Source: Candidatus Baldrarchaeota archaeon (GTDB taxonomy: Archaea > Asgardarchaeota > Baldrarchaeia > Baldrarchaeales > DXJG01). From it: a DNA stretch of 64,000 nt. Positions 3,201-54,376 of this stretch are shown one piece after another. A program made the position numbers and the translations under genes. Within the stretch, counting starts at the first letter, position 1. Every line of letters starts with the position of its first letter. A model generated the notes under the pieces. That model had not been told where the DNA came from, ran no database searches, and saw only the letters and a list, made by a program, of their open reading frames with translations. Where the stretch lies: assembly GCA_019056805.1 (NCBI GenBank), contig DXJG01000007.1, positions 1,992-65,991 on the forward strand, given 5' to 3'.

Positions 3201-6200
3201 ACAATAATTGTAGTCTGCTAACCATATAATTTCTCCATCTAGAGTAATTATGAAGTAGGCTTCTTCAAAAATACTCCACCATGGCGAACTCATATACGTT
3301 GTAATGTTGTAAGTCTCGCCAGTAGTTTCGTCGTAGATTGTTGCATTATATATGAATGCATGGTATGCTTCATATACGTAAATCTTTGTTCCGTTTTCTA
3401 ATATGTAGTAGCGTTTGTATTCGTAGGTTGTTGGATCCCATTCTTCACGTAGCAATCTGTATTCGTATTCGTATCCGTTCCAGAACTTTATTTCTTTTAA
3501 CGGTAGTTTTTCGCCGTTTATTAATATGTAGGGCTTACTTAAGATGAGATATTTCTTGCCATTTGATGTTTCTGCATAGTATCTTGTCTCTGGGTTGGGT
3601 ATGTATACTTCAACGCTTCCATTATTAATGGTATAGACTTTGCTGTATGCCCAGTCTTCTAAAATATGTTCTCCCCATGGTTCAGTATAATCTGGACCAT
3701 ATGTCCAGTTAAGCAAGTTAACACTAAAACTGTATCTTTGGTCATTGGCGTATTCGGTGAAACTCATATTCACTTGAATGAGATACTTTCCATCTTCTGT
3801 GGCGAAAGCACTATAATTGTTTACAATAATATAGGTTTCGTTTACGACTGTGTCTTTGTGATGCCAGTCTAGCCACATATTTATCCATTCACCAGAAGTC
3901 TGGTTGAAAGAGTAGTGTTCCCAATGCCATCCTTCAACTTCTTCCATCGTACCTGTGGTCTCATTCCATATTTCGTACGTACCATACTCGTAGACCTCTT
4001 TGTTAGTTTGATTGTAAACTATTATTTCTGTGGTGTTTTCTCTTAGATTTATTGTTGCAATTATTTCCAAGTTGCTCCATATAGTTTCATTTTCGCTCCA
4101 ATAGTAATTCCAACAGTTGAATCTAACTCTTATTCCATCGACATCGGTTACAAGCTGACTGCCACCTTCCATTTCTACTTCAACTATAAACCATTGGCCA
4201 GGATTAGTCGCAAAATACCAAGTTCCAGAAGTTGCTCCTTCTTGATCTCTAATTCTAACATTAATTACTGGTTTCTCTACGGAAAGTTGATGTGCATTTT
4301 CATATATCCACTCCCAGTCTCTTGGCCATATCCTCCACTGACTACTATATACGTAGTAGTCTATCCATAGGTTTGGCCCAGGATTTCCTATGAACTTCCC
4401 TTCAAATTCTAATATGATTTTATTATCTTCAACGGTTTTTGTGCCGCTTATTAGCTCGTAGAGCCGTAATTCAGAGGGTACCTCCTCGATTTTCCAACCT
4501 TCCACATAGTCAATGTATTGTCCCCATTCATCCTCTTTTAGTGTTTCATTCCAGTATTGGTAGAGCAGATAATAGTTAAAAGTACCGTCTGTATTATTGT
4601 AGAAGAGAAGCAAATTGGGTGAAGCCCAGTCTGTTGTTTCTACCTCATAATATTCTCCTGTTGTTTCGTCCCAGTAAACTCTTGTTACATTTATTTCTTT
4701 AGCAATAGTTACCCATTGCTCCATTAGATATGGTCCAAACACCCACTCCCTTGTTATTATTGTGGCATTTGGATCCCAAACATATGTGTCTAGGGTTTCA
4801 TTGTATACCCAGCCTCCATGATATACCCTGTATTCTTCATGCCACCCCGTCACATTAACATAGGTCCTCAAGCTATATGGAAGACGAATTACTATGCTGG
4901 CGTTTCTAAAATCAGCATCAGATATCCCGGTTATGTTTAGTCTTATGATAAATGTTTGGTTGATTCCAACACTACGGATTAATTCATAGTCTGTGTTTAA
5001 TATTTCTGCTAGGTACGTACCACCATACATCATGTCAAAGTATACTGCTACTTCGTCCCATGGACCGCCTATGGCGACCTCTTTGTATAAGCTTAGTTCA
5101 CTGTCCCAATAATAGTACGAGGATGTACTAATGTAATTGCTTTCATTGTCAAAGATGTTTAGATAGACATTGTATATTCCTTTTGGAGTTAGGTCGTTAA
5201 ACTGGCCTGTTATTACGAAGTTATATTGATCTGGGGTTTCAATTAGGGTTGTTTGACTTTGATTCAATGTAAAGAACTCACCCGTAGTACTGCCGTATGG
5301 GTCTGAATAGTTATAAATAGAGGTCCATGTAGACCAATCATTCGATGAGTAATCGTAGTAAATTGATAGATAGGCGGATATATTTACGGCCCACATATTC
5401 CAAGATAGATCTATTGTTCCAAGTTCGGTGCCTTCTTCAAATAGGAGTTTGGGAATTGTTATGTTTATCATTACAGGTGCGTTTAATTCAATCCATGTGT
5501 CTGGTGTAACCAAATACCAGGTTTCGGTTGTTGTGTTGTAGCAGAATATGTCGTAATGTGCTTTGGGGCCAAACTCCCAGCTTATGTCTCGGTATGTCCA
5601 GTTCCATCCCCATGTTTCGTTGTATAGTCTCCACCATACTCTTATCTCGGGTGGTAAATTCATTACTGATGGGTCGACATAAATTGCGTCTTCAGTTTCA
5701 TAGTATAGTAGCTCACTGAAGAACGGTATGATATGCAAGGTATACGTTGTATCAGCTAGCCAATTTCCTATGATTATTTTGAATCCTACAAAGTTTAAGC
5801 TGGCATTTCTTGCTCTTTCTATAGCGTCTCTTGCGTCAAAAGGCACTGAGCATTCTGGGGTCCCAAAGTCATATGACTGATAGGGTTCAACAGGGTTAAG
5901 TTCATCATTATAAAAGTCTATAAGTACTGATTCGATTGTCGCTCCGTTGTCTATGGAGGCATTAAATCCAGTTAAAAATTCAATTGCTCTTAGTTCTGCT
6001 ATTATTAAGATTTCTACAGTACCGCTATCCGCGCTTGTGTTGGAGAATGTTATAAATAGTTCTCCTTCGATGAAAGAAGCATTAAAGAAGGCTAAAACTC
6101 CTAATTCCTCATTGTAGAATATATATACATTTGGCTCTCCTTCTTCTCCTTCTTCTGGTGGTGGATATTCTGCTCCGCCTGCTTCTACTCTAAAGTGGTG

Positions 6201-6710
6201 CTCTGTGTTTTCAGTCCAGTCTCTTATGGTTACCGTAAACTTAACACAAGTTGCTCCAATGTCAGTTGCTCTTACAGCTATTTCTTCACCGTTTATACTT
6301 ATGGTTGTTCGATCTGTGCCTATGTTGGTGACTGCATAAGTATCTAAAACGTTAAATGCATCATCACAAAGATGTATACTTAATGAATCAATTATGGCGC
6401 CGCCGTCGATGCTTAGTGACAGTTCTTGTAGTCCCCTTACACCGTCAAGTGTGACGTAAATTAATAAATCTACAGTTTCACTGTCTTTTGAACTATTTTG
6501 AAAAGTGATTTCAAGCCCGTTTTCAATTAATGTATAATTGAAATAGTCTAGTGGTTTTCCTTCAGCATAATAGTCTACCATTATTACGGGGCTTTCTCCT
6601 TCCTGTTTTGGTATCATTGCCGAACTTAAGTTAATACTCGAAAGAACTATTAGTACACAAAGTATCACTGAAAAAAGAGGCTTAAAACCTATTTTATTTA
6701 CCATTTTCAT
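258..6710 (-). CDS. Giant cell-surface protein (2150 aa), signal peptide plus C-terminal transmembrane anchor, aromatic-rich and probably N-glycosylated
   Basis: Uninterrupted 6.45-kb ORF. N-terminus MKMVNKIGFKPLFSVILCVLIVLSSINLSSA looks like a signal peptide; C-terminus has one hydrophobic helix (LMYLVIIAVAIIGVAIVIM) followed by RKRKR. Very rich in Y/W/T/N/E with many N-x-S/T sequons and internal repeats (e.g. YILENGTKIYV twice). Confidence 0.85.
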   Translation of the reverse strand: MKMVNKIGFKPLFSVILCVLIVLSSINLSSAMIPKQEGESPVIMVDYYAEGKPLDYFNYTLIENGLEITFQNSSKDSETVDLLIYVTLDGVRGLQELSLSIDGGAIIDSLSIHLCDDAFNVLDTYAVTNIGTDRTTISINGEEIAVRATDIGATCVKFTVTIRDWTENTEHHFRVEAGGAEYPPPEEGEEGEPNVYIFYNEELGVLAFFNASFIEGELFITFSNTSADSGTVEILIIAELRAIEFLTGFNASIDNGATIESVLIDFYNDELNPVEPYQSYDFGTPECSVPFDARDAIERARNASLNFVGFKIIIGNWLADTTYTLHIIPFFSELLYYETEDAIYVDPSVMNLPPEIRVWWRLYNETWGWNWTYRDISWEFGPKAHYDIFCYNTTTETWYLVTPDTWIELNAPVMINITIPKLLFEEGTELGTIDLSWNMWAVNISAYLSIYYDYSSNDWSTWTSIYNYSDPYGSTTGEFFTLNQSQTTLIETPDQYNFVITGQFNDLTPKGIYNVYLNIFDNESNYISTSSYYYWDSELSLYKEVAIGGPWDEVAVYFDMMYGGTYLAEILNTDYELIRSVGINQTFIIRLNITGISDADFRNASIVIRLPYSLRTYVNVTGWHEEYRVYHGGWVYNETLDTYVWDPNATIITREWVFGPYLMEQWVTIAKEINVTRVYWDETTGEYYEVETTDWASPNLLLFYNNTDGTFNYYLLYQYWNETLKEDEWGQYIDYVEGWKIEEVPSELRLYELISGTKTVEDNKIILEFEGKFIGNPGPNLWIDYYVYSSQWRIWPRDWEWIYENAHQLSVEKPVINVRIRDQEGATSGTWYFATNPGQWFIVEVEMEGGSQLVTDVDGIRVRFNCWNYYWSENETIWSNLEIIATINLRENTTEIIVYNQTNKEVYEYGTYEIWNETTGTMEEVEGWHWEHYSFNQTSGEWINMWLDWHHKDTVVNETYIIVNNYSAFATEDGKYLIQVNMSFTEYANDQRYSFSVNLLNWTYGPDYTEPWGEHILEDWAYSKVYTINNGSVEVYIPNPETRYYAETSNGKKYLILSKPYILINGEKLPLKEIKFWNGYEYEYRLLREEWDPTTYEYKRYYILENGTKIYVYEAYHAFIYNATIYDETTGETYNITTYMSSPWWSIFEEAYFIITLDGEIIWLADYNYCLNVEKIGRVPVEFGGYFTVINGTTWVNLTKGWIDWDYIAQEYYILLENGTKIYVRYDYDYMYMYYFERNGKRYYIEYPSAYYVGEYNGKSIIVPEWFKRSWYYTLVGEERVELPYEGVSDEYEWLSWWCLQQPKSEGGAVPEDDYALVNGSLYLIHYDYEGATTGYIIVDGVTYSITKGQGLYTKVSGIDCWDIEEIGFAIFIGNLTNQGSYDRESLIKLYVDYFTYDSTTESGNVTLFNGTLLDVSRHLRVVFFEVNVSGTIYYTVIPEPEYDWENNTYVLYLLNGSRIDLESLEDYEFIGIVTVELGGYEYPGPETFTWNGETYNTTVWINEYRSINLMYDYYRIYTVSGAWYDLIPINWLLHPEWWYTIPPRYYNDLYSYEYEFPIYNITVNGVNYTTNLYVEHIKVARLSWGYPVTWHLEELRWGDVSYRYEVWDVIVGSPEWGLWGYRKWTIDPTTGALDLDGDLSTTDDQFYVKRVYVGEFGWNETVNGLDVNIVYDPNPVIPGDELIVNAWMGTSTNTYWNRWNETYYWFYTNMTPVSPETMAIINETLWDTERNAPKSGYWDIARMARNMTWEDYLKKAEEEGWDWVKEEVTWTWLWFGFQQSYWVSTGENETFQSYHVDLRYEYAGIFIYNDTNDNLIMDEDEATHYFIPEAVGNVIFVTPGEAFGIYNETGMLTLPINESVEFGVSYLDINGTMFPFGRSYYAWYGEEIYGTDLRTFQERPVDASLEELSFKLHFYVENSTATNSTEARIKIDQHIGNWDLDLPTGIAVLENLSLSLNYYIYAETSGSWEVVSEDGTPITPDEIVEASRISLDTSGLKFAEVNMGDTYIWGGNLSMVCNVSTHTIPLSTFVATYTDYESETSVGGWTFQSTMYFLSVGFPKWDGYFVYEDPEVVVYSGKQKKTIVSSLAEFLAGWIPTIGKPGEEAPPPREIPLMYLVIIAVAIIGVAIVIMRKRKRAAMEKSLVKPSKQ

Positions 6711-7031: not shown

Positions 7032-9194
7032 ATGAATGAAATATTAATTTCAGCTGTTTTGATCCTTTTACCTAATATTTTAATAGCTTTGATTGTCCTT
7101 TTGATGAGATATACTCGTTTTAAAGAAATTGCATTGCGTACAGGAATAGCCTTCTCTGCGTTTTGGCTAATATATTGTATTGGCTCAAGTATAGTTTTCA
7201 ATTTGATCGGAGTTGAACCGAACTTAGTTTATTCTTCCCGAGATTTTTCAATATCAAACTTAAAGACTCTTGCAACTTATGTAGTATCTCTAGCAATATA
7301 CTCTCTCACTTTGACAATCACTTACCCGGTTTTCATGTTCCCATTTGTTTTCTTCCTTGCTCCTATAATAGCCGTTTTAATTCTACTTTACGCCGTTAGA
7401 GGAAGAGGAATAAAAGAAATAACTTTTTGGATCGATTTAAAACCCAAAAGATTGATGGGGTGGGATGAAGAAAAAGAGGTTTTGAAACTTTTAATAGCTC
7501 TTCTACCTGTTTCTCTATATTTCTTAACATCATTACTACGAATATTGAAATACGAGGAAGATCCGCTTTCGGTTGGTAGTACCTTGTTGGGCTGGGTACT
7601 TGAAATTTATATGCTTTTTCTTTTATCTTTCATAGTGGCGGTGAATCTTCTTTATACTTCTCGTGTTTATCACGGAAACAGGTTTGTAGGTGAAACTATT
7701 AGAAGAAATACCTTCAATAATCTCTTATCTATAAGTATTGTGCTTTCGTCCGTAAGTCTTATACTTTTTGTACAAATTTTCAAGGGAATCATCTACGTTT
7801 TCATATACTTCTCACTATATTACATTGCGATAACTATTATTTTCCTTTCATTCTTCAAAGTAATGGAACCAACTTCCGTGTATATCTTTGCTAAAATTCT
7901 AACTTTTATGAGAGATGAAAATAAATTCCAAAGAATATTTGAAAAAAGAACGCTTGTACTAGGCATTATAGTTGGTATAGTGGTTACTTTAGCTTCTCTT
8001 TTCTGCACATACGCTTTTATATCGGTTTATTGGAGCTACGTGAATATAGATCTAGATGCCCTTTTAGGTGAATGTTCTTTAGATAGCAGCCCCTCCCTGG
8101 AAATTTTGGAAATTTTAAACATACTTATTTCTTTAGGATCTTTACAAAGATTTTTTGAAATAGCAATTATAATGTTTCTTATCTATGCGCTCAGAAATAT
8201 GGTTAAAATAAAATTTTTCATAGCTGGCATATATGTAGGCATATTTAAGGTATTTGCTGACTATCCCCTTTTACAGCGCGCAACTAAAGCTTGGACTACA
8301 ACTGTATTTTCAAGTGCGAACATTGGTTTCGTCAACATTTTAGTTCCAAGGTTTGCCTATCTAGGATTGACAACTTCTTATCTGGGTTCATCTGTCTATC
8401 AATTTATAGTCATACCTATACTTCTCCTTAAACTTTTAGCAACACTCTTAGTTTTTACTGTTTTAGTTTACTTAAAATTTGGTAAACTTGTTCAGTTTAT
8501 CGATGTTGAAGCTGGACATCAAATAAAATATATATGTGAAGTTGAACCTGACTATATTACTCCTAACTCGTTGATAAAACTGAAAATAGCAAAAATATTT
8601 GAAGAAAAAATTCCAGAAGATCTTTTACAGATCGTAGAATTCTTTAAGACAAAAACATACACTTTTCAAGAATTAAAAGAAAAATTAGGCATGCCTGATG
8701 AAAAATTAAAGAAAATTCTCCGATATCTGCATGAAAATTACATTATTGACATTTACGACTGCGAATTTAAAATAGTTACACCAGCACCAGTGATAGAAGG
8801 AATATATATTGTGAATACAGACGGTATAGCTCTGTACAGTAAGTCATTTGGTGAAGTAAAAGTCGAACCTTTATTGATTTCAGGTATGCTTTCAGCAATA
8901 ACTAGCTTCGTTAAAGAAACAACAAGAAGTCAACAATATTTGCAAGCTATTGATCACGGTGATGTCGTTCTCATGATAGAATATGGAGATGGATTTTTCG
9001 TCACCCTTTTGGCGAACAGAGAAACCCCTGAAATTCGTATGAAATTAAGGGAATTTGTTAGGCGATTCCAAGAAAAATACGGTGAAATTCTCAAACGATG
9101 GAGTGGAGATCCCGGTGAATTTGAAAATGTTGAAAAATTAGTCAATGAAGTTTTTGAAATCACATCTACTAGTGAAGAAATAACCACTACCTAG
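7032..9194 (+). CDS. Polytopic membrane protein with C-terminal cytoplasmic domain (putative roadblock/longin-like alpha/beta domain)
   Basis: First ~500 aa contain many hydrophobic helices; C-terminal ~220 aa are hydrophilic with pattern GIYIVNTDGIALYSKSFG...LISGMLSAITSF...FFVTLLAN...KRWSGDPGEF, homologous to the C-terminus of the 48963..51935 protein. Confidence 0.8.
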   Translation: MNEILISAVLILLPNILIALIVLLMRYTRFKEIALRTGIAFSAFWLIYCIGSSIVFNLIGVEPNLVYSSRDFSISNLKTLATYVVSLAIYSLTLTITYPVFMFPFVFFLAPIIAVLILLYAVRGRGIKEITFWIDLKPKRLMGWDEEKEVLKLLIALLPVSLYFLTSLLRILKYEEDPLSVGSTLLGWVLEIYMLFLLSFIVAVNLLYTSRVYHGNRFVGETIRRNTFNNLLSISIVLSSVSLILFVQIFKGIIYVFIYFSLYYIAITIIFLSFFKVMEPTSVYIFAKILTFMRDENKFQRIFEKRTLVLGIIVGIVVTLASLFCTYAFISVYWSYVNIDLDALLGECSLDSSPSLEILEILNILISLGSLQRFFEIAIIMFLIYALRNMVKIKFFIAGIYVGIFKVFADYPLLQRATKAWTTTVFSSANIGFVNILVPRFAYLGLTTSYLGSSVYQFIVIPILLLKLLATLLVFTVLVYLKFGKLVQFIDVEAGHQIKYICEVEPDYITPNSLIKLKIAKIFEEKIPEDLLQIVEFFKTKTYTFQELKEKLGMPDEKLKKILRYLHENYIIDIYDCEFKIVTPAPVIEGIYIVNTDGIALYSKSFGEVKVEPLLISGMLSAITSFVKETTRSQQYLQAIDHGDVVLMIEYGDGFFVTLLANRETPEIRMKLREFVRRFQEKYGEILKRWSGDPGEFENVEKLVNEVFEITSTSEEITTT

Positions 9195-10781: not shown

Positions 10782-13700
10782 GTGTTTCACCCTGATTTTA
10801 ACAAGAAGGCTTCTCCAACAACTAAATTAATATCTATGCTTCTGCTTTTAGCTCTTCTCTTAACCTACTGCTACTATCCAGCGACATTGTTTACGAATAC
10901 AAACTATCCGCAAACTACCTCCCTACTAATTTATAGAGACAATGAAACCACTGATAGCTTGACAAAGGTATCTTACGATGACGAAAATTTACAAGAATGG
11001 TTAAGTTCACTTAGAAGCTTAGAGGTTCCAGCAGGATCTCCAATGGATATTTATCCCGTTAGGGAGAGCATAGCTGTTGATTTATGGCCGGGAATCTATT
11101 TTCCGGAGGATGTTGAAATTTATAAGCCTCTTATAGAGGATCTTCATGCTCAAGGAATAAAATATATGATTTATAGGAATTTTTACATGGTTACTGATGT
11201 AAACTACACTTACCTATGTGAGTATTATCCTGGTTTCAATGCATCGAATGCTGGTTTTATAGATTTAGATGGAAACCCGTATATAGTAGATTATGATCCC
11301 TACGGTACACCAATATTTAGAGCTTCAACAAATAGACCTTATTGGCAAAGTTTTCTCATAAATTCAACGAAATTAGCTATCGATGCTGGTGTAGATGCTG
11401 TTGTTTTTGATGTTGGATTTGGACATTATCCTCCAAATGAGTTAAATTTTGATCCAGATAGCATTAAAGATTTTAGAGAATACCTAGCAGAAAAATATAC
11501 TTCAGAAGAATTGGCTTCAAAATTTAATATTTCTGACATTTCTACATTCGATTTTGGGCAGTATCTTAGAGATCTAGGATATAATGCTAGTAGTTTAAGG
11601 GAAGCTTTAACGCAAGGAACATCATTGGGATACTATGCTGATTTGTTATGGTCGGAGTGGTGTGAATTTCATCTTAAAGTTTTGGTGGAGTTTTATAAGA
11701 GACTTTATACCGAGGTAAAAGAATATGCTCAAAGTAAAGGACGAGATTTCTATGTTTTCTCCAATATTTATCATGGTCTTGATCCCCAGTACAATATACT
11801 CTATTTGATTAATTATGTGGATGGTATCTATGCAGAAATTTTCTTTGATGATTTACAGTATCCAAATAGAACTCCAGCAACAGTTTATAAGGTAGCTTAT
11901 AGTTTAGGGAAACATTATATCCCTATGACTTCTCCATCCAACGATTCGGAACTATATCCATTATATATTGCAGAGCTTTTTGCATGTGGCAGCTGGACGG
12001 GTGGAGCAGGAAACTATACTCCATATTTCCTTTTTGTTAACTCGCATCCTGAACTATTCAGTAAGGAACAGGACGGTGAAATAGGACTTGTTTACTCTTT
12101 AGCTTCAAGTGAAAACTATAGTTCATTTGAGGGTGCCTTTTACCTTCTCTCTGATACCCAGCGTAGTTTTGATGTTATTGTTTTTGGAGATAATAAGTGG
12201 TTTAATGAAAGCTTGACATTAAATGACTTGTTAAAGTATAGAGCAATTTTACTACCTAATACTGGTTATCTTACAGATGAACAAGTTGAATTGCTTCTGA
12301 ACTATGCTGAACAAGGTGGTATTCTAATAGGCATTGGAAGTGTTGGAACACGAAATGAAACCGGGGAAATTGTCAACTCAGAGACTCGAACAACGTTTAT
12401 CAGCCTTTTTAATGGTAGCATAGTTTCTTATGGAAGTGGAACAGTTATTTCATGGACCAGTGATATAGCTTTACAGTACTTATTGCAGAGAAATACAACA
12501 CTTTTAGAAGAATTTGAAAATAGATTAAGTGAAGTGTTTTCTCCCGAAATCATAACAAGCTTTACCCACAATACCACTATATTTCAATACTGGGATCCTG
12601 AATCTAATGCTATGATCTTTCATTTCTTAAATCGTGAATATGACTCCAAAAACGATGTAATAACACCTCAACACGATGTGAGCTTTAAGTTTACTTTAAG
12701 ACCTGAATTGGACGGTCTTCCTCTTGAAATAAGATTTTATTCACCGAATGACTATTTCGAAGGAATAGAGTTGACTTACAGCTCAGATCCTAATGGATAT
12801 GTGGAAGTAACAATTCCGAAAGTACATATATGGGGTATTTTGCGTGTGGAAGCTAAGAAAAAAGCAGTACAAGAAGATTTAGTAATTAACAGTCCAACCG
12901 TGCTTAAGGATCAAGTTATAGTTTTGAACGGTAACCTATTAGTTAACTCAAAGTTGACATTGGAGAATGTTATTTTAAAGATGAATAGTTCCCTTGACAG
13001 GGTGTTTCGAATAGAAGTTTATGAAGGAGGAGAACTTGTTATCAAAGACTCTGTCATTACTGCGTATGATCCAAAGTATCACTATTATGTTAAGGTGAAT
13101 AAGGGCAGTCGGTTCTATATGGAGAATAGTGAGTTAAGCCATGCTGGTGTTTGGGGACCTATGTATGCTGGAGGGCTGTGGATAAACACGGATGATGTCA
13201 TAATCTTAAACTGTACAATACATAGTAATTATGACTATGGAATACATGTATATAATGCTTCATACGTCGAGATAATAAACTGTAAAATTTACGGCAACAA
13301 TATAGGAATATACTTGCTCAATTCATCTTTCGTAACCATCTCTAAATGTAACATTTACGATAATTCAATTGGTATCTACGAAAAGGGAAGCTACTATTCT
13401 ACAATCAAACACAGTCATATCTCAAATAATTTATACTGGGGAATAACAATTTGGGACTCTCTATTCCCATTAATATCTGATAGTACCATTCATGATAGTG
13501 TCCATGATGGAATTATCATTTGGTACTCGTTTTTCGCAAAAATTTACAACTGCAAAGCTTACAGTAATGAAAATGGTTTTAACATACGATACACGCCTTT
13601 AGTGACAGTTTCAAGTAGCGAAGTGTATAACAATGAGGAGGCAGGCTTGTTTTTCTTCCATGTTGAGCTTCTGTATGGTCATCCGTTGGCAATTCTTGAT

Positions 13701-15104
13701 TCTCTTGGCACTATAGTTGCTAACAGTTTTTACAATAACACATATGGCATATACATGTTGGAAAGTGAAAAAACTAAGATTGAAGCTTGCAATATACTTG
13801 ATAACACGTGGGGAATATATGTTGAAGGAACTACTCAATGCACTTTCATTTTCCGTTCAAACTTCATTGATAACACCGATCACATTTATGTTGATGAAAA
13901 GGCTCAAGGAAAAATTCAATTTGACAACATAACAATTGGAAACTACTGGGATGACCACAGTGGAGAAGATGCTGATGGTGATGGTATTATTGATACACCT
14001 TATACTATTAACTCGGTAGATAAAGACTATAAGCCGCTAGCTAATCCAGTTACTATCGTAAAAATAGAAGATATATATGGGCCTATGATCACGGACATTC
14101 AAGTCGTGAAAGAAGAGGGAAATGAAAATTACAATTTAACAATATCTGTTAATGTCACTGATGATTCTTGGTTAAGTTGGGTTTTAATGAACGGAACAAT
14201 ACATAATTTGCCGGGTGGAGAAAACTATCCTTTGATGCGTATAATGGTATATTTCTACGATCCCTTTGCTACTATCTTAGGCTATGATAGGTCAAACTTC
14301 AATCTTCTTCCATCAGAAGGATATCCTCTCAAAACATGTACAGCTTCAACTCAGTTCACTTTTCCTCTTAGCTATAAGCCTCATTTCAAGATTTTTGCTG
14401 TGGATACCTATGGGAACTGGGCTGAAAATGACTCTACAACTCCTCATATAACTGGTATATTTTGGGATCCAAGTAGTCCTGAATATGATGAAGAGGTAAC
14501 TGTGTTTGTTCATGTATTTGATCAAAGCAGGATATCTGAATGTTTACTAAGTTACTTTAATGGAACAGAGTGGAATAACGTTTCAATGATATATAATGAG
14601 GAAACAAATGCAATGGTTGGAAGCATTCCAAAACAACCATATGGAGTTACAGTAGAATTCAAGGTAATTGTTAAAGATACTATGAACAATATAGCTGTAA
14701 GTGCAACTTATTCTTACACTGTTAAAGATACTACTCCGCCAATATTGAGAATAATTCAGCCAAGTGGCGGAGAAACAATTTCTAATGATGTTAATGTTAC
14801 TTGGGAGTCCTATGATGAAGGTTCGGGGTTAAAAGAATTCAAAATTTATTTAAATGGAACATTAAAAGCTACTTTGCCCCCTACAACATCCTGTTATCTT
14901 CTATCTAACTTAACACCAGGTTCTTACAATGTTACAGTTGAAGCTGTGGATAATGCTGGCAACCGTGCAACTGCATCAATAGTTTTCAAGTATGTCTCTG
15001 AAGAAGGTGGATTACCTAACTCTCTCATACTCATGGGAGGAACAATAGCCGGTGTTGTAATTATAGTTACAGTGTTTTTAATGAGAAAGAAACTAAAAGA
15101 TTGA
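10782..15104 (+). CDS. Large surface-anchored protein (1440 aa) with parallel beta-helix (PbH1/NosD-like) repeats and Ig-like domains
   Basis: N-terminal hydrophobic segment; central run of repeats of the type IINCKIYGNNIGIYLLNSSFVTISKCNIYDNSIGIY typical of right-handed beta-helix proteins; Ig-like region near the C-terminus; C-terminal TM anchor LILMGGTIAGVVIIVTVFLMRKKLKD. N-terminal ~600 aa may be a glycoside-hydrolase-like domain (weak). Confidence 0.85.
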   Translation: MFHPDFNKKASPTTKLISMLLLLALLLTYCYYPATLFTNTNYPQTTSLLIYRDNETTDSLTKVSYDDENLQEWLSSLRSLEVPAGSPMDIYPVRESIAVDLWPGIYFPEDVEIYKPLIEDLHAQGIKYMIYRNFYMVTDVNYTYLCEYYPGFNASNAGFIDLDGNPYIVDYDPYGTPIFRASTNRPYWQSFLINSTKLAIDAGVDAVVFDVGFGHYPPNELNFDPDSIKDFREYLAEKYTSEELASKFNISDISTFDFGQYLRDLGYNASSLREALTQGTSLGYYADLLWSEWCEFHLKVLVEFYKRLYTEVKEYAQSKGRDFYVFSNIYHGLDPQYNILYLINYVDGIYAEIFFDDLQYPNRTPATVYKVAYSLGKHYIPMTSPSNDSELYPLYIAELFACGSWTGGAGNYTPYFLFVNSHPELFSKEQDGEIGLVYSLASSENYSSFEGAFYLLSDTQRSFDVIVFGDNKWFNESLTLNDLLKYRAILLPNTGYLTDEQVELLLNYAEQGGILIGIGSVGTRNETGEIVNSETRTTFISLFNGSIVSYGSGTVISWTSDIALQYLLQRNTTLLEEFENRLSEVFSPEIITSFTHNTTIFQYWDPESNAMIFHFLNREYDSKNDVITPQHDVSFKFTLRPELDGLPLEIRFYSPNDYFEGIELTYSSDPNGYVEVTIPKVHIWGILRVEAKKKAVQEDLVINSPTVLKDQVIVLNGNLLVNSKLTLENVILKMNSSLDRVFRIEVYEGGELVIKDSVITAYDPKYHYYVKVNKGSRFYMENSELSHAGVWGPMYAGGLWINTDDVIILNCTIHSNYDYGIHVYNASYVEIINCKIYGNNIGIYLLNSSFVTISKCNIYDNSIGIYEKGSYYSTIKHSHISNNLYWGITIWDSLFPLISDSTIHDSVHDGIIIWYSFFAKIYNCKAYSNENGFNIRYTPLVTVSSSEVYNNEEAGLFFFHVELLYGHPLAILDSLGTIVANSFYNNTYGIYMLESEKTKIEACNILDNTWGIYVEGTTQCTFIFRSNFIDNTDHIYVDEKAQGKIQFDNITIGNYWDDHSGEDADGDGIIDTPYTINSVDKDYKPLANPVTIVKIEDIYGPMITDIQVVKEEGNENYNLTISVNVTDDSWLSWVLMNGTIHNLPGGENYPLMRIMVYFYDPFATILGYDRSNFNLLPSEGYPLKTCTASTQFTFPLSYKPHFKIFAVDTYGNWAENDSTTPHITGIFWDPSSPEYDEEVTVFVHVFDQSRISECLLSYFNGTEWNNVSMIYNEETNAMVGSIPKQPYGVTVEFKVIVKDTMNNIAVSATYSYTVKDTTPPILRIIQPSGGETISNDVNVTWESYDEGSGLKEFKIYLNGTLKATLPPTTSCYLLSNLTPGSYNVTVEAVDNAGNRATASIVFKYVSEEGGLPNSLILMGGTIAGVVIIVTVFLMRKKLKD

Positions 15105-15333
15105 TCGTCATGCGAAATAAAAGAAACATTTGTGTGAACTGTGTTAGATGTAAGTATTTAGAATTTGTAACGATTTTAGGTAATGGATTAAACGCCTTTA
15201 TAATCATAAATAAGATAAAACTCAGATGAAGCTACTTATAGGGGACAGGAATTGGAGATGTTTAAATATCGTTGCACTACAGTAAGTATGCTGTCACAGA
15301 GCTTAATTTGAAGAAGTTTATTGGTGGTGTAGA

Positions 15334-16560
15334 TTGCAGTTTGGAGCTTTCTTTGGTATTTGGCTGATTTTCTTAATATTTATATTTATGCTAGCTGCTG
15401 AAGAAAGTCAAAGGAGAAAAGAAACTTTTCAGAAAATATATTCATGGTTAAAACAGAAATCTAAAAAGATATATTATGAAAAAGGCGGCTTTTTGAAAAG
15501 ACCTAGAATTATTGCAGAATTGAAACCAGAAATGGAATTGGAACGAGTTGAAGTTACAACATTTACTGTTCACCACGGGTATTATACAGGTACACATTAC
15601 GCTTCACATGCAAGAACTTATCTTAGAATCTTGGGTACGAGTGAGGAAGGTACTTTTGTAAACATCACTATAAGAGATGAAGGTCTTTTTGATAAACTTG
15701 CTATAGGGCTAGGACTTACAAAAGATATAGATTCAGGAGACCCCATATTTGATCAAACACATAGAATTAAAAGTGGAACACCTGAAATCGCCCTTAAACT
15801 CCTAAAGGATAAACAATTTAGAGATTATGTATCAATGATTCGTGATTTAAGGAAGTTTGAAATTAGAGGAGGAAAACATTTACATTTTATAGTTGAGTGT
15901 AATTATGACGTTTCATCTGCTGTGAATGCTATTTTAGCTATGGAAAGAACTGCAGAAGTTTTAGCGCCAGAGATTGAAAGAAAACCAGTAAAGGTTGAAA
16001 AAGCAAGACCCGTAACCCCGAAAGTAGAGCCTCGCAGAGCCGTAAGTTCCGAGGTAACGTTGAAATTGAAGAAAGAGTTTGAAAAATTGTCAATTTCTGT
16101 TTCTAAATTAGAATTTAAACCTTCAGAAGAAAACTTCACTAGGGTGATCATTACACCTTTACTAGGCGAATTCGATTACGTGCAATATGAAATCACTGAA
16201 AAATTGAAGGTAAGAGCTTTGGATAATCTTGAGAAACCTGCAAGTAAAACAATTACGATTCAGATATACCCCAAAGATATGAAAACAACCTCAACTCAAA
16301 AACCTACCTCTATTGAGGAAATCAAGACATTATTTGATATTAGGTGTGAGGATCAAGAAGTTTTAAGAAGAATTTCCGAAGCATACATACTTTTTGAAGT
16401 ATTAAGCGAGATTAAAGAATTGTCTAACTTCAATGTAAAACTGCAAGGCCAAACAATGGAAATATACTTAGAATGTGGCTTAAATCCAGAGAATATTAGG
16501 AGAGCTTATGAAGTAATCAGAGAAGCTGCATGGTGGACAAAATTCTATATACTAATTTAA
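15334..16560 (+). CDS. Uncharacterised membrane-anchored protein, paralog family member 1
   Basis: N-terminal TM helix; about 50-60 percent identical by eye to the 16723..17955 product, with shared blocks RVIITPLLGEFDYVQYEI and EEIKTLFDIRCEDQEVLRRISEAYILF. Confidence 0.75.
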   Translation: MQFGAFFGIWLIFLIFIFMLAAEESQRRKETFQKIYSWLKQKSKKIYYEKGGFLKRPRIIAELKPEMELERVEVTTFTVHHGYYTGTHYASHARTYLRILGTSEEGTFVNITIRDEGLFDKLAIGLGLTKDIDSGDPIFDQTHRIKSGTPEIALKLLKDKQFRDYVSMIRDLRKFEIRGGKHLHFIVECNYDVSSAVNAILAMERTAEVLAPEIERKPVKVEKARPVTPKVEPRRAVSSEVTLKLKKEFEKLSISVSKLEFKPSEENFTRVIITPLLGEFDYVQYEITEKLKVRALDNLEKPASKTITIQIYPKDMKTTSTQKPTSIEEIKTLFDIRCEDQEVLRRISEAYILFEVLSEIKELSNFNVKLQGQTMEIYLECGLNPENIRRAYEVIREAAWWTKFYILI

Positions 16561-16722
16561 ATCTGAACACTTTGTCTTTATTATTAATCTGTTTTAATTC
16601 TCCGGCTTTAATTTCTTTTTAGAAATACATAGAAGCATGAAAATGAAAATACTTAAATAAATGTACTTGATTTTAACTTATGAGTAATTATAGAAAGCTA
16701 TCTTGAGGGGGAATAATATAGG

Positions 16723-17955
16723 TTGTACTCTTTATGGTTTATATGCTTGTGGTTTGCATGTTCAACGTTGGTAATTATATTAGCTATTTGGTTTGAAAAA
16801 ATAAGAAAAGCAAGAATAACAGAAATCTTTCAGGAAATTTTCTTTTGGTTAAAAGAGAAATCTGAAAGAATACGTTATGAAAATCATAAAAACCCTAGAA
16901 TTACAGCTGAGTTAAAACCAGAATGGCAATTAGATCAGGTTGAAGTTACAACGTTTATTGATAAATATGAACACTATTACGACTACTATATGTTACGTGC
17001 ATCTGAAAGATTTAATCTTAGGATTTTAGGTGTAGGTGAGGGGAAACATTTTGTAAGTCTTGCTATAAAAGATAAAGTCCCTTTTGATAGAAGTGTTTTA
17101 GGATCAGGGTTTGCAGAATATGTAAAATCTGGAGATCCAGTATTTGATCATTGGCATATCATTAGGAGTAAAACACCTCAAGCCGCTCTCAAACTTTTAA
17201 AAGACGATAAATTTAGAAGCTACATCAGTAATATACACAAATTAAGAATTTTCAAAATTGAGGGAGATGGAACTCTAAGTTTTACTGTTGAATGTAACTA
17301 TGATCCAATATCTGCTAAAAATGCCATTTTGGCTATGAAAAGAGTATTAGAAGTTCTATCACCAAAAACTAAGGAAAAAACTGCCGTTAGTGAAAGGGTT
17401 AAACCCGCTGTTTTAAAAGCTGAACCTCAGAAAATTATAGATCCCGAATTACTTTTAAACTTAAGAAAAGAATTTGAAAAATTATCGACCCATGTTTCTA
17501 AGTTAGAGTTTAAACCCTTGGAGGAAAATTTCTCTAGAGTGATCATTACTCCTTTACTAGGCGAATTCGATTACGTGCAATATGAAATTGCTGAAAAATT
17601 GAAAGTAGAAGCAATAGACGACCTTAAGAAAACTGTAGAAAAACCCATTACAATTGAAATACGTCCTAAAGAAGTAACGTTATCATTAGGTCAAAAAATA
17701 GCTTTTATTGAGGAAATCAAGACATTATTTGATATTAGGTGTGAGGATCAAGAAGTTTTAAGAAGAATTTCCGAAGCATACATACTTTTTGATTCTTTGA
17801 GCAAAATCAAAGAATTGTCTATCTTCAGCATAAAGTTGCAAGATTCAACGTTGAAAATATGTTTAGAATGTAGTGTCGATCCTGAAAACATCAGAAAAGC
17901 TTATGAAGCAGTTAAAGAAGCTGTCAATCTGGTTAAATTCCACCTATTAATCTAG
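16723..17955 (+). CDS. Uncharacterised membrane-anchored protein, paralog family member 2
   Basis: Same architecture and conserved blocks as 15334..16560; tandem arrangement. Confidence 0.75.
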   Translation: MYSLWFICLWFACSTLVIILAIWFEKIRKARITEIFQEIFFWLKEKSERIRYENHKNPRITAELKPEWQLDQVEVTTFIDKYEHYYDYYMLRASERFNLRILGVGEGKHFVSLAIKDKVPFDRSVLGSGFAEYVKSGDPVFDHWHIIRSKTPQAALKLLKDDKFRSYISNIHKLRIFKIEGDGTLSFTVECNYDPISAKNAILAMKRVLEVLSPKTKEKTAVSERVKPAVLKAEPQKIIDPELLLNLRKEFEKLSTHVSKLEFKPLEENFSRVIITPLLGEFDYVQYEIAEKLKVEAIDDLKKTVEKPITIEIRPKEVTLSLGQKIAFIEEIKTLFDIRCEDQEVLRRISEAYILFDSLSKIKELSIFSIKLQDSTLKICLECSVDPENIRKAYEAVKEAVNLVKFHLLI

Positions 17956-18214
17956 GACTCGAAATATCTCATAACCATATACATCTAGTTATTTTCCGAC
18001 ATATATTGCGGTTGGAAGAAAAAATTTGCTTAAATGGATATATGTTGCTCTTCGAATTTTAGGTAGATACTGGTTTTGAATTCGTGTATTTTGAGGTTTC
18101 AAATGTGGAAGAAATGATACATCAATCGTCATTATTATCCTTTGTAAAAATAAAAACTACGACAAATATTTAAATAAGGTAAATTGAATAAATAGTTAAG
18201 AAGGTGGGGATTAG

Positions 18215-18875
18215 ATGCAGTTTGGTTCCTATTTTTTGCTTTGGTTAATTGTTATAACTCTACCGATAATTTTGGCACCTATTTTCCTAATATTTCTAGA
18301 GAAAAAGAAGATAAAAGAAACTTTACAGCAAACTTACTCTTGGTTAAAAGAAAAATCTCCAAAAAATATACATTGATAAGGTTCATACAAAGAATCCCAA
18401 GATCATAGCCGAGATAAAACCAGAATGGCAATTAGATCAGGTTGAAGTTACAACGTTTCCTATAGGTGCTTTTACATCTCCCAGGCGCGGTCTGTTTTTC
18501 TTCTTTCCAAGAAACTACTTTAGTATCTCAGGTATAAAGGAAATAGAATCGCCTATAAAATTTGTAGTAACGGGAAGAGATCCTTTGTCTGTAACCATTG
18601 CCAGATCGGAGTTTAAACATGATTTTGAGACAGGAGATCCCGTATTTGACCGAAGATACATGGTTAAGGGTGAAGACTCTGAAGCGATTCCCAAGATTCT
18701 AAGTGATTCTAAGTTTAGAAGCTACATATTGGGAATATACGATCTGATAAAGTTTGAAGTCAGAGGAAATAAACATGTAAGTTTCATAGCTGAGTGCAAC
18801 CCTGATATTAAATCTGTAGAAAACAGCATTTTAGCAATGAAAAGAATAATAGAAATTTTATCAGAAACCATCTAA
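18215..18875 (+). pseudogene. Decayed third copy of the tandem paralog family (frameshifted N-terminus, truncated C-terminus)
   Basis: A short ORF from ~18215 (MQFGSYFLLWLIV...SWLKEKSPKNIH-stop) matches the paralog N-termini, then similarity continues in another frame (KNPKIIAEIKPEWQLDQVEVTTF ... GDPVFD ... FRSYI ... ECN ... ILAMKR) and stops at 18875, lacking the ~230-aa C-terminal half. A 43-bp stretch is identical to copy 2. Confidence 0.6.
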
Positions 18876-19071: not shown

Positions 19072-19392
19072 GTGAACAGTACTCAGCATGGAAATAGGCA
19101 GAGCTCTATAAGGATTCAAGTGAAGTTCTTGGCGTCGTTAAAACATATTTTGGGAGTTAAAAATGTTGATTTGGAAATTTCTCAGCCAATGAAGTTGATA
19201 GAAGTTTTAAATTTACTTGTAGAAAAATATGGAGAAAAATTCAGGGAAGCTGTGTTTGATGAAGAAGGAAAAGTTAGAAATGAGCTTCTTATCTTGGTGA
19301 ATGATGCGGAAATCTCTGTGCTTAACGGATTAGATACTAAAATATCTGATGGAGATACAATAACTCTACTACCTACAGTGCATGGAGGATAA
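19072..19392 (+). CDS. MoaD/ThiS-family ubiquitin-like small protein (SAMP-like) with C-terminal Gly-Gly
   Basis: 106 aa ending in ...TITLLPTVHGG; size and diglycine terminus are typical of the beta-grasp sulfur-carrier/modifier family. GTG start preceded by GGAGG. Confidence 0.75.
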   Translation: MNSTQHGNRQSSIRIQVKFLASLKHILGVKNVDLEISQPMKLIEVLNLLVEKYGEKFREAVFDEEGKVRNELLILVNDAEISVLNGLDTKISDGDTITLLPTVHGG

Positions 19393-19456: not shown

Positions 19457-20332
19457 ATGAGATTTTCTGGTATGTTAAGAATAGGGGTTGTGCAATTTGA
19501 GATCAGAGAAATAAATAGTTTTGATGATTTTAAGCAACATGTCACTAAACTTGTTGAATCAGCCGCAGAACAAAAAGTAAATTTACTGGTTTTTCCAGAA
19601 CTTTTTACCCTTGAACTTTTAAGCATAAAAAATATTTTTGAATCAAATGAAGTAGCAAAATCTTTAGCTGAGTATTACGAAGATTATTTTAACCTATTTT
19701 CGGAACTAACTGTAAAATATGGTTTTCTTATACTTGCTGGTTCAACTGCCACGGAAAGAAGTGGAAAATATTTCAACACAGCTCACCTATTTTTACCGAG
19801 TCGAGAAGTGATAAAATATGATAAAATTCATTTACATCATATTGATAAAACTTTAGGGTTTTCACCGGGGTTAAAACCTGTTATAGCAGATGTAATATTT
19901 GGCAAAGTTGGTTTAATGATTTGTTACGATGTTGGTTTCCCAGAACTTGCACGAATACTCGCACTCAAAGGTTCCTATATTCTTTTAGTGCCAAGTGCGG
20001 CACCTGGTAAATCTGCGTGGAACTGGTTAAGGTATTGTTGCCATGCTAGGGCAATAGAAAACCAAGCAATTGTAGTACACTCATGTCTTATAGGTAAATT
20101 TGGGGAATTAATGTTTAAAGGAAAATCTGCAGTAATTTCTTCAACAGACTATGAGAAAAGTGGAATTATAGTTGAAAGCGAGTATGATAAAGAAACTTTA
20201 ACAATTGGAAATATTGATTTAAAGCGGTTTTGGAAAATTAGGGAAAAAACAAGAGCACCTGTACTCAAAGATTTAATACCAAGCATTTACAAACAGTTAT
20301 GTGAAATAAATTGGAAAATGCAAACAGAGTAA
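19457..20332 (+). CDS. Carbon-nitrogen hydrolase (nitrilase superfamily)
   Basis: Catalytic-triad context: LLVFPELF (Glu), a conserved Lys region, and LMICYDVGFPE (Cys). Confidence 0.8.
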   Translation: MRFSGMLRIGVVQFEIREINSFDDFKQHVTKLVESAAEQKVNLLVFPELFTLELLSIKNIFESNEVAKSLAEYYEDYFNLFSELTVKYGFLILAGSTATERSGKYFNTAHLFLPSREVIKYDKIHLHHIDKTLGFSPGLKPVIADVIFGKVGLMICYDVGFPELARILALKGSYILLVPSAAPGKSAWNWLRYCCHARAIENQAIVVHSCLIGKFGELMFKGKSAVISSTDYEKSGIIVESEYDKETLTIGNIDLKRFWKIREKTRAPVLKDLIPSIYKQLCEINWKMQTE

Positions 20333-24058: not shown

Positions 24059-26398
24059 TTAGAGGCCTTTATCTAACATATTAAGGATAGAAGTTCTAAC
24101 ATTTACCAGAGTTCTCTCATTTATGTCACATTCAAAATAAGTTCCATTAGCTGCCTGAACAATTTTCCAAGCAAACATAGAAGAAATATTTTTGAATATT
24201 CCCCCACCAGCGACAGGATTAATTAATATGAATGGTATTTGCTCTCTTCTAATAATTTTAGCAACTTCTATAGCGTCTTTAAGAGCTGTCACCGACTTAC
24301 CCCATCTAAGTTTTCTTAAGGGTACATTTGCAGCTGCATCAGAAATAACTATTATAGCTGGTATAACCTCCCTATCTCTAATCTTCTCTTCCTTTGCAAC
24401 TTCTAAAGCTCTAAGCATTCCCAAGGCAAGAGGCGTATACCCACTTGCTTTCAATCTCATAATTAGATCGATAATTTTCCTGAAATTTGACGTTGGACGT
24501 TGAAGAACATAAGCAGAATCTCCTCTAAAGACAATGAGTCCAACTTTATCTCTATGTCTATAAGCTTCCCCGTAAAGAGATATTACAGCATTGCCTACAG
24601 CGTCTTGCCAAGCGGCCATAGACCCGCTCATGTCTAAAACAAGGATAAGGGATAAGGGAGCCTTATATACCCTGACTTTCTCTCTAATATCTCGAGGTAA
24701 AACCTTGATTGCTAATTGTCCATGAGAACTGTTTTTCATAAGTATTCCCTGAGTTACTGCTGCGGATCTAATTGTGGCAGGCCAATGAATATCTACGTGA
24801 TCTAATTGTCGAGGGACTGTGTAACTAATACATTTGCCTTTATGTCTAGTTGTTAATGTTAAAACACGTTTTCCCACAGCTTTTCTAGTAAGTTGGACAT
24901 CTTGCTTACTGGGCTTTATTCTAACAATTTTCCTGAAAAATCCCTTAATTTTTTCAGGTAATGGTAGAGAACCATCAAATAAACTGGAATCCAAATAAGA
25001 TCTGGAATATATAGTTAAAGGAAGTATTTCGATTCCTTTAGTCTTCTTTTTCTTCCCTCTTTTTATTTTAATAAAGTCTACTATTTTTATTAAATGAGAT
25101 TTCACTTTACTAAAAGGTTTTTTCCGATATTTAGAGTAAACAATCTCGTTAATAACATCGTCTTTGATAGGACCCTTTTTACTTTTAAGTGAAAAAGGTT
25201 TTCCTTTCTTTTCAGATTTTCCCTCCATGAGTATAAATCTTTTCTTTTTCTTAGTTTCGTTATTTTTCAATTTTTTTGGATTTACTTTTTTACTTTTGGT
25301 TTTCCCCTTAATTTCTTCAATAGGTTTAATTTCGGTTTTTATTTCTTTTTTAACGGTCTGTAAGGCATTTTTAAAGGCTTCATCTATTTCTCTTGGCGTT
25401 GCAGGTTCTTCTCGACCCTTATTTCGTGTTCTGTGACTTAATGCAAGTCTAGCAGCTATCCTGATATCTTCAGGAATAACTTCAGTTCTTTCATGAAAAG
25501 CTGCAATAGCTTTAGCTGCTTCACAAATTACAATATCTGGTCTATGACCATCAACGTTTAAAGTAAGTGAAATTTTCGCGGCAACATACATTAACCATTC
25601 CGAAATCTTGACTTTTGGAAGAATTTCTCTAGCTCGTATAATTTTTTCTCTAAGTTCTTTTTGAAATGGTTCCCATTTTTTCCTAAATTCTTTAGGATTT
25701 TCTTTAAACTCTAAATTACGCTTGATAATTTCAACTCTTTCATGAATATCCTTAATGCTTTCAATTTTTACATGTAAAGCAAATCTATCGAGGAGTTGTG
25801 GTCTTAATGAACCTTCTTCTGGGTTCATTGTACCAACTAAAATGAATTTTGAGGGATGTGACACTGATATGCCTTCACGTTCAACAATGTTGACTCCCAT
25901 TGCAGCAGCATCAAGCAAATCGTCCACTAAATGATCAGGTAGCAAATTTACTTCATCAACATAAAGAATGTTTTGATTTGCTTCTGCAAGAATACCTGGT
26001 TCTAAAGCTTTAACTCCCTCCTTTATAGCTCTCTCAATGTCCAAGGAACCTACTAGACGATCCTCTGTTGCACCTAAAGGCAATGTCACGACCTTCATCT
26101 TTCTTTTGACGACAGGTAGTTTGTCACCTGATTCGTATCTTTTTCTACATTCTTCACACATAGCAGAGGGATCGTGAGGATTACAGTCAAAGGGACAATC
26201 TGCAACAACCTCAACTTCTGGAAGTAAGTCTGCAAGTGCCCTAACAGCTGTACTTTTTCCAGAACCCTTTTCGCCAGAAATTAGCACACCACCAATGGCT
26301 GGATTAATAGCATTTAGAATCAAAGCTAGTTTAAGTTCCTCTTGACCGACAATAGCTACGAAAGGGAAAACAAAGTCCTCAAACAAGCTACACGTCAC
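24059..26398 (-). CDS. ChlI/ChlD-family AAA+ ATPase fused to a C-terminal von Willebrand factor A domain (Mg-chelatase-like)
   Basis: N-terminus [50 protein letters not shown] matches ChlI/BchI including Walker A; Cys-rich insert CPFDCNPHD...CEEC; Lys-rich linker; C-terminal VWA with MIDAS motif [12 protein letters not shown] start. Confidence 0.9.
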
Positions 26399-28581: not shown

Positions 28582-30891
<2,310 letters not shown>

Positions 30892-53328: not shown

Positions 53329-54246
53329 CTAGGATAATATTTTTAGTACTTTTTCTTTTATTTCTTGAAGTGATGATAGAAGTTTTCCTAGTTTAAAGTC
53401 TCTTTCTTTTAGTATTGAAAACATAGCTATTTCATCGCTTATGTTGTAAACTGCGATGTATTCTCTTTTTATATGCCACAGTGCTAAGTCTGCTGTATCA
53501 AAGGTTATGTATCCGCTTTTACGTAGTTGCGAGAACATTGTTCTCACCGTCTCGATAGGTTTTATTAGAGATTTTGCAGATACATATTTTAGTTTCTTCG
53601 GGTTAATGAGTTCTTTGCTTATTGCTGAAGCTATTTCTAAACCGTCTCCCTTGTTTAGAATGAAAGATGCTAAGGCTTTTTGTTTTTTATTGAATTTTGC
53701 TAAGATTTTATGGATTTTCTCAGCCACTTCTTTTGCTTCTTTGGAAAGAACGCTATCTAAGAGTTTACAAACAACCGTTCTAGCTGTTCCCTCTGGTATA
53801 GATGTGGCCTCAACAACCACATTATGATTTCCAAATATTTTTCGTATTTCCTTTATGGAAATCTTTTTTATATCATATTTGCTGGCTAAAACGAATATTC
53901 TTGCATTCGGAGAATATTTTTTAAGATATTCTAGGGCTTTAAGATATTCTTGTTTTGCTTCATCGATTGTTTCTTTGTTAGAGGAGTCTACTACGAAGAA
54001 GAATGCACCTACGTTTGAAAATATTTTTCCTGACCATTGATCTGTGAAATATTTGTATATGAATTGTTTTTGTCCTCCTACATCAAAAGTTGTAACTTCT
54101 AATAAGCCTCTATACTTGTATGTTTTTGTACTTACAAATTCTGTTGGTTCTAAGTTCTTTACATCGTCCCAGTCTTTCCCTTCAAAAACATGTTTAACCA
54201 AAGATGTTTTTCCAGCTGCTCTTAACCCCATTATTAAAACTTTCAT
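53329..54246 (-). CDS. Small GTPase of the Arf/Sar/Rag-like type with a ~140-aa C-terminal extension
   Basis: G1 GLRAAGKTS, G3 DVGGQ (the form seen in Arf/Sar and Rag families), G4-like ASKYD; start set at the internal ATG (MKVLIMG). Confidence 0.85.
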   Translation of the reverse strand: MKVLIMGLRAAGKTSLVKHVFEGKDWDDVKNLEPTEFVSTKTYKYRGLLEVTTFDVGGQKQFIYKYFTDQWSGKIFSNVGAFFFVVDSSNKETIDEAKQEYLKALEYLKKYSPNARIFVLASKYDIKKISIKEIRKIFGNHNVVVEATSIPEGTARTVVCKLLDSVLSKEAKEVAEKIHKILAKFNKKQKALASFILNKGDGLEIASAISKELINPKKLKYVSAKSLIKPIETVRTMFSQLRKSGYITFDTADLALWHIKREYIAVYNISDEIAMFSILKERDFKLGKLLSSLQEIKEKVLKILS

Positions 54247-54376
54247 TTTAAACAACCTTTAATGCTATTTCAAAACTTGAATTTAATTTATTTACTTCTA
54301 AATAGAGTATATACTTTTCTATTAGAAACATATTATTACAATTAAAAATGTAGACTTCATTTGCAGAATTTCAACT

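Follow-up and report, generated by a model that had tools for sequence, protein, structure and literature searches.

A tandem array of three genes for an uncharacterised, N-terminally membrane-anchored protein family is located in a 64,000-nucleotide (nt) stretch of DNA from a Candidatus Baldrarchaeota archaeon (assembly GCA_019056805.1, contig DXJG01000007.1, positions 1,992 to 65,991 of the forward strand). This whole stretch (G+C 30-40%) is called the window, and positions are counted from its first letter. Copy 1 (15334..16560, +), taken from the list of open reading frames (ORFs), starts with TTG and encodes a long form of 408 amino acids (aa), assigned to paralog clade A. Copy 2 (16723..17955, +) also starts with TTG and encodes a long form of 410 aa in clade B. 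Both long forms consist of a transmembrane (TM) helix, domain 1, a linker and domain 2. Copy 3 (18215..18875, +), a member of clade C, is natively short and comprises the TM helix and one domain, 219 aa after removal of one base. A search of the six-frame translation with the family hidden Markov model (HMM) located these three copies only.

Copies 1 and 2 are 55% identical over their full length (BLASTP, E 4e-148). The similarity is not a matter of low-complexity sequence, which the initial annotation had named as a possible objection; its tandem array of an uncharacterised anchored family was borne out, with the ORFs exactly where it had placed them. The blocks GDP[IV]FD, ECNYD, ILAM.R, RVIITPLLGEFDYVQYEI and EEIKTLFDIRCEDQEVLRRISEAYILF were all found. 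The motif FR.YI holds for copies 2 and 3 and reads FRDYV in copy 1.

In copy 1, the TM helix (aa ~3-22, 15340-15399, +) and a juxtamembrane helix reaching up to aa 42 (+) are followed by domain 1 (aa 40-212, 15451-15969, +), a basic Pro/Lys linker (aa 213-237, 15970-16044, +) and domain 2 (aa 238-408, 16045-16557, +). The profiles of domains 1 and 2 are colinear over 137 columns (hhalign probability 95%, E 3.6e-8), and an HMM of the N-domain detects the C-domain (HMMER, i-E 1.2e-5). By these alignments, the long form therefore carries a ~170-aa domain twice, as an internal duplication. The AlphaFold model (AF2) of copy 1, with a predicted local distance difference test score (pLDDT) of 79, shows one long helix (aa 2-42) running through and past the membrane, domain 1 (aa ~43-209), the linker in disordered form (aa 213-237) and domain 2 (aa ~239-407). 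The order of the secondary structure elements is identical in both domains.

Rarity of the family

No above-threshold match for the family proteins was obtained in Pfam, NCBIfam or PADLOC. The family profile, run against all PDB sequences including 6T84, yielded nothing except one chance match (E 0.53). DUF3137 (PF11335) was rejected as a candidate, as its only match, in a single member, scored 13.2 bits (E 0.082) and stayed below the cutoff of 26.1. Searching 5.8 billion proteins by a word index retrieved 15 clusters, and a repetition with a broad alignment added three only, all fragments or short forms. When 1.84 billion representatives were searched exhaustively by HMM, 19 proteins appeared at E<=1e-3, just 10 of them at E<=1e-10. 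Among the GTDB species representatives, one locus was found, in a Baldrarchaeota metagenome-assembled genome. The named relatives are 'Candidatus Baldrarchaeia archaeon' and 'Candidatus Baldrarchaeota archaeon Yap30.bin4.67'. Distant members (22-35% identity) are single-copy. The family is small, previously undescribed and very rare, limited to few archaea. Two borderline matches (P0040 and P0041, E ~2e-4) resemble the domain in its 'GDPxFD + helix' core only, which is followed by a C-terminal region with multiple TM helices; neither matched Pfam or PDB. Their sequences hint that part of the domain may occur in other membrane-protein architectures.

Paralog clades and evolution of the array

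Copy 3 is split over two reading frames, 18215-18376 (TM helix and start) and 18348-18875 (rest of one domain). At the frameshift site (18356..18366, +), the window reads TCTCCAAAAAAT and the intact ortholog of locus L015 TCTCAAAAAAT. Either the C at 18359/18360 or one A of the A6 run at 18361-18366 can be taken as the extra base with equal right, and stops follow at 18374-18379. Removal of one base restores a colinear 219-aa ORF. Programmed -1 frameshifting at A_AAA_AAT was considered and rejected, because -1 leads into the wrong frame and +1 is needed. The L015 ortholog (P0164) is intact, has 219 aa and is 82% identical to copy 3. Another intact ortholog of 217 aa, again a TM helix and one domain, follows the long form of L008 (5991-6644); it is 58-60% identical to copy 3, and its end after the ILAMKR helix coincides with that of copy 3. 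The copy 3 lineage ends at this domain boundary in every genome, and the family HMM found no C-domain relic downstream of copy 3 in the six-frame translation of the window. Copy 3, with the base removed, and its L015 ortholog have diverged with a nonsynonymous rate (dN) of 0.085 and a synonymous rate (dS) of 0.66 (dN/dS 0.13), and the ratios on either side of the frameshift are 0.125 and 0.129. The third gene had been described as the remnant of a decayed long copy. This description has to be replaced: copy 3 is the ortholog of a natively short paralog of 217-219 aa, intact in relatives and conserved at a dN/dS of 0.13, and is itself interrupted by one extra base.

Putative expression signals are retained in the frameshifted copy 3. 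A TATA-box-like element (TTTAAATA, 18169..18176, +) lies 46 nt 5' of the gene, and a Shine-Dalgarno-like AGGTGG 12-13 nt before its ATG. Copy 1 is preceded by the same TATA-box-like element (TTTAAATA, 15261..15268, +) at a distance of 73 nt and by a Shine-Dalgarno-like GGTGG 11 nt before its start. The promoter role of both elements is suggested by their sequence. Copy 3 is a functional gene inactivated very recently, or else the frameshift is an assembly error. The sole other assembly found, JGI contig L009, matches the window at 100% over 4100 bp and therefore gives no independent check.

A tree of the N-domains contains three paralog clades in the Baldrarchaeia-like group. Clade A holds long forms, namely copy 1 and all its syntenic orthologs. 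Clade B includes long and short forms: copy 2 and P0015 are long, L011 has an intact short form, and that of L007 is interrupted by two in-frame stops. The N-domain of copy 2 groups with P0015 and these two short forms. Clade C is short throughout and comprises copy 3, the genes of L015 and L008, P0029 and a 32-aa relic in L001-L006. Genomes retain A+B+C, A+B or A+C. The orthologs of copy 1 are 63-82% identical to it and occur in conserved synteny. Between copy 1 and four orthologs, dN/dS is 0.12-0.17, and 0.06-0.09 for the N-domain alone. Judged by these ratios, selection on the family is purifying, not diversifying. The birth-and-death turnover suggested at the outset is thus confirmed in part. 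Differential retention, pseudogenisation and deletion occur across the genomes, and this differential loss is real; it acts on old paralogs under purifying selection, not on a diversifying surface family.

Two stretches are 100% identical between copies 1 and 2. The longer (87 nt) covers 16311..16397 in copy 1 and 17706..17792 in copy 2 (both +) and encodes IEEIKTLFDIRCEDQEVLRRISEAYILF. The shorter (38 nt; 16156..16193 and 17551-17588, +) encodes PLLGEFDYVQYEI and sits inside a region of ~100 nt with 88-95% identity. Otherwise, the two genes share 67% DNA identity, at which runs of such length have a chance of about 6e-13 (87 nt) and about 3e-4 (38 nt). By their sequence, the identical tracts are products of gene conversion. 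The direction was probably from copy 1 to copy 2, because the peptide of the 87-nt tract resembles the clade A orthologs more closely than the clade B protein P0015. The C-domain of copy 2 as a whole is 68% identical to copy 1 and 55% to P0015. The highly conserved blocks noticed initially do not reflect exceptional functional conservation, since gene conversion produced them. The locus represents a clean small example of domain duplication, single-domain forms that arose repeatedly, short-tract conversion between tandem paralogs and very recent inactivation.

Predicted membrane topology and fold

The three copies and the orthologs alike carry an N-terminal hydrophobic helix (aa ~3-22, mean Kyte-Doolittle 2.5-2.8). 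In some database entries it is missing, only because the gene caller picked a later start; conservation extends to the upstream TTG or ATG start and its GGTGG-type Shine-Dalgarno-like element. All full-length members lack K/R before the TM helix and have 4-8 K/R in the next 20 residues. As these charges follow the positive-inside rule, the N-terminus is predicted outside and the domains are placed in the cytoplasm. In the metagenomic contig L012, two adjacent genes carry the family C-domain fused to Arrestin_N+Arrestin_C instead of the TM-anchored domain; Pfam confirmed the arrestin domains for P0042 only. The fusion fits a cytoplasmic interaction module, deliverable to membrane proteins by different routes. 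The two genes belong to a cluster of arrestin-like genes on this contig at 2072-2908 (-), 8001-9599 (+) and 9697-11199 (+), the first of which, an ORF of 278 aa, is arrestin-like by eye only.

A Foldseek search against the PDB with the full-length model of copy 1 reached a probability of 1.00 only for TtfA (E 1.1e-3, target TM-score 0.57) and CCDC47 (E 0.07). Sequence identity to the structural matches amounts to 7-12%. A model of the copy 3 domain was obtained with a pLDDT of 80.6 and a predicted TM-score (pTM) of 0.77. The ~170-aa unit is predicted to adopt the TtfA/CCDC47 version of an extended secretion-chaperone-like alpha/beta fold. Going by the models, solved structures with this fold would otherwise be limited to mycobacterial TtfA and the globular cytosolic domain of CCDC47. 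The initial statement that no known domain is present stands at the sequence level, where no family matched, and gives way at the level of the fold.

The match may be misleading, either through errors in AlphaFold models from shallow alignments or through convergence on a common alpha/beta sandwich. The proteins would then have an unrelated role, e.g. as a YbjN-like membrane-tethered regulator or sensor. Alignments of 11-14 rows and the low identity to the structural matches are in line with this explanation. It is rather unlikely, as one topology is common to two independent models of ~40%-identical paralogs and to the two halves of the long form, and the same three PDB chains lead both structure searches with a clear margin and a Foldseek probability of 1.00.

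Proposed function

A role as membrane-proximal, non-enzymatic adaptor or chaperone subunit of some membrane machine is proposed by analogy and with moderate confidence, because CCDC47 and TtfA are both N-terminally anchored, cytoplasm-facing accessory subunits of membrane machines. CCDC47 works with the Sec61 multipass translocon/PAT complex, TtfA with the MmpL3 lipid transporter. The single N-terminal TM helix would tether one (short form) or two (long form) ~170-aa domains to the cytoplasmic face of the membrane. The TM and juxtamembrane helices may dock onto a putative integral-membrane partner, while the cytoplasmic domains would bind a protein or ribonucleoprotein client. The long form may represent an intramolecular pseudo-dimer of the domain, and short forms may pair with one another or with long forms.

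Several observations weigh against this proposal. The AlphaFold models rest on 11-14 aligned sequences. No sequence similarity to CCDC47 or TtfA was detected with Pfam PF07946, the PDB-sequence profile, the exhaustive HMM search or hhalign. For 20 family members, PF07946 (DUF1682) gave no match at E<=10, and hhalign against a CCDC47 profile resulted in P 0.16-0.43, a weak test with a profile of vertebrates only and an effective number of sequences (Neff) of 1.2. The wider secretion-chaperone-like fold is common, so the likeness could be convergent or very ancient. The basic C-terminal latch helices with which CCDC47 reaches the ribosome tunnel exit are absent. The presence of the family in very few lineages is odd for a core biogenesis factor. 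No gene for a translocon (Sec), an insertase (YidC) or a resistance-nodulation-division (RND) transporter occurs among the scanned ORFs of the 64-kb window, and none adjoins the distant family members. The genomic context therefore names no partner. A 108-aa gene after P0026 was examined as an Asterix-like partner and rejected, as its product is not a membrane protein; no Asterix-like gene was present among the window ORFs scanned.

Genomic neighbourhood

The conserved synteny comprises a DEAD-box helicase, the family gene or genes, Urm1 and a CN-hydrolase. In the distant clade, the neighbours are PmbA/TldD and SAM hydroxide adenosyltransferase, and nothing informative is common to both clades. 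In the window, a Urm1/ThiS-type ubiquitin-like protein of 106 aa (19072-19392, +) is followed by the CN-hydrolase (19457-20332, +). This pair occurs downstream of family genes in six related loci (L001-L004, L008, L015), where AF_0692-like and/or tRNA_edit genes, not present in the window, are located in between.

Between the helicase and copy 1, a gene at 10782-15104 (+) encodes a protein of 1440 aa that contains Beta_helix/NosD repeats and Ig-like domains and carries a hydrophobic anchor at its C-terminus, ahead of RKKLKD. It is absent from this position in L001-L006 and L008. In L007, split ORFs with beta-helix and Ig domains are located just upstream of the long form. Two further ORFs, of 2150 aa (258-6710, -) and 720 aa (7032-9194, +), contain no Pfam domain. 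L001-L004 and L009 carry comparably sized counterparts (giant proteins of 1924-2179 aa and proteins of 716-720 aa), likewise without Pfam match, on the upstream side of the DEAD-box helicase.

Downstream of the array, at a distance of a few kb, genes for a VWA-domain-containing MoxR-type AAA+ protein (24059-26398, -) and a Cdc48-type double-AAA ATPase (28663-30891, +) are located. A eukaryote-type small GTPase of 308 aa (53329-54255, -) matches Gtr1/RagA (E 3.8e-27) and Arf-family proteins, consistent with an Asgard host. Two genes for EamA-family transporters of 296 aa each (55941-56831, - and 59877-60767, -), ~3 kb apart, are likely local paralogs.

Alternative explanations

The proteins could be true CCDC47 homologs, archaeal forerunners that act at a SecY/YidC-type translocon, binding the ribosome near the exit tunnel and assisting multipass biogenesis in the manner of the PAT complex. 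The order of TM helix and cytosolic domain is the same, and the host is Asgard-like, with a Gtr1/RagA-type GTPase, Urm1 and Cdc48 in the window and relatives labelled Baldrarchaeia or Baldrarchaeota. Prokaryotes are said to lack PAT components (PMC9630114). No sequence signal links the family to PF07946 or to the CCDC47 profile. Latch helices, a coiled coil and the lumenal acidic region are missing, translocon genes do not occur nearby, and the one candidate checked as Asterix-like neighbour failed. This explanation is graded as quite improbable, because the equally good score of bacterial TtfA shows that the fold is not specific to eukaryotes, and because the narrow distribution (only ~19 representative clusters) gives no evidence of a spread across Asgard lineages. 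It would also be a long shot that the domain is homologous to both the CCDC47 globular domain and TtfA, and that a PAT-type accessory factor already existed beside the translocon in Asgard archaea. If true, CCDC47 and TtfA would belong to one ancient superfamily of TM-anchored, cytoplasm-facing accessory subunits in all three domains of life. Should the resemblance be homology, the family would offer a prokaryotic entry to the origin of the PAT/multipass-translocon machinery and a simpler system for the function of the domain.

The initial annotation favoured a surface-exposed or interaction-related family with rapid birth-and-death, i.e. arms-race-type evolution. Copies in the tandem array are indeed lost, truncated or pseudogenised differently in related genomes, and the array adjoins large predicted surface proteins, with the 1440-aa beta-helix/Ig protein directly upstream. 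The location at the surface did not hold up: the charge pattern directs the domains to the cytoplasm, and the C-domain is fused to cytosolic arrestin domains. The dN/dS ratios of orthologs (0.12-0.17 over copy 1, 0.06-0.17 including the N-domain values) and three old, syntenic paralog clades disagree with an arms race. L001-L006 and L008 lack the beta-helix gene at the orthologous position, and the family gene there directly follows the helicase. Arms-race evolution at the surface is thus very unlikely.

Immunity proteins are often small alpha/beta proteins, encoded in tandem paralog arrays beside giant proteins. Immunity- or antitoxin-like proteins of a polymorphic toxin or defence locus would agree with tandem paralogs undergoing gene conversion and decay and with giant ORFs nearby (2150 aa, 1440 aa), but are hardly credible in view of the missing PADLOC match, the membrane anchor instead of a toxin domain at the end of the upstream 1440-aa protein, orthologs that follow a DEAD-box helicase elsewhere, single-copy distant members with unrelated housekeeping neighbours, and strongly purifying selection.

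Comparison with known systems

The adaptor proposal finds its closest models in TtfA and CCDC47. TtfA (TMM transport factor A; MSMEG_0736/Rv0383c; PDB 6T84; Mycobacteriales) spans the membrane with a TM helix (aa 2-24), extends its C-terminal part into the cytoplasm and has an essential region of aa 1-205 (PMC6593404). The TM helix is located at the very start as in the archaeal proteins (aa ~3-22), the rest of which is likewise predicted to be cytoplasmic. The functional unit of ~205 aa has the size of the short forms (204-219 aa), and an enzymatic motif is absent from both. By prediction, the family conforms to the TtfA layout of an N-terminal TM helix and a ~180-aa cytoplasmic domain of the 6T84 fold. 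The differences are the lack of detectable sequence similarity between the family profile and PDB sequences, the restriction of TtfA to bacterial mycolate producers, its work with MmpL3 in trehalose monomycolate export (scanning the window ORFs revealed no RND/MmpL gene) and its disordered C-terminal tail in place of a second domain copy.

CCDC47 (PAT complex; PF07946/DUF1682; PDB 7TUT chain 4 and 9I78 chain 4; eukaryotes) is comparable as a membrane-proximal, non-enzymatic accessory subunit. Asterix as obligate partner and an association with the ribosome-Sec61 complex are further features of CCDC47. It consists of one TM helix, a globular cytosolic domain contacting the ribosome and latch helices (PMC7505659; PMC12572126). 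For the archaeal family, too, one TM helix ahead of a globular cytosolic domain with the CCDC47 fold is predicted. CCDC47 places a signal peptide and an acidic lumenal region ahead of its TM helix, whereas the TM helix of the family starts at about residue 3. According to AF2 secondary structure, short forms end directly after the domain, and long forms continue into the second domain and terminate in one 23-residue helix. CCDC47 has one domain, the long forms two. Class I chaperones of type III secretion and YbjN-like proteins (SycN, InvB, SicP, AmyR) are small and soluble and lack a TM anchor; their structures cover only part of the ~170-aa domain and score clearly below TtfA and CCDC47.

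Membership in the CCDC47 (PF07946) or TtfA family is not supported; common to all three would be the predicted fold and the arrangement of TM helix and domain. In the literature searched, no paper mentioned both TtfA and CCDC47, or both CCDC47 and Asgard archaea. Within the TtfA/CCDC47 structural type, the archaeal proteins constitute a new sequence family that features a domain duplication. The domain, the architecture and the evolutionary history of this new and very rare family are now defined. One fold and one layout are predicted to be shared by a subunit of the eukaryotic translocon (CCDC47), the mycobacterial partner of a drug target (TtfA) and an Asgard protein.

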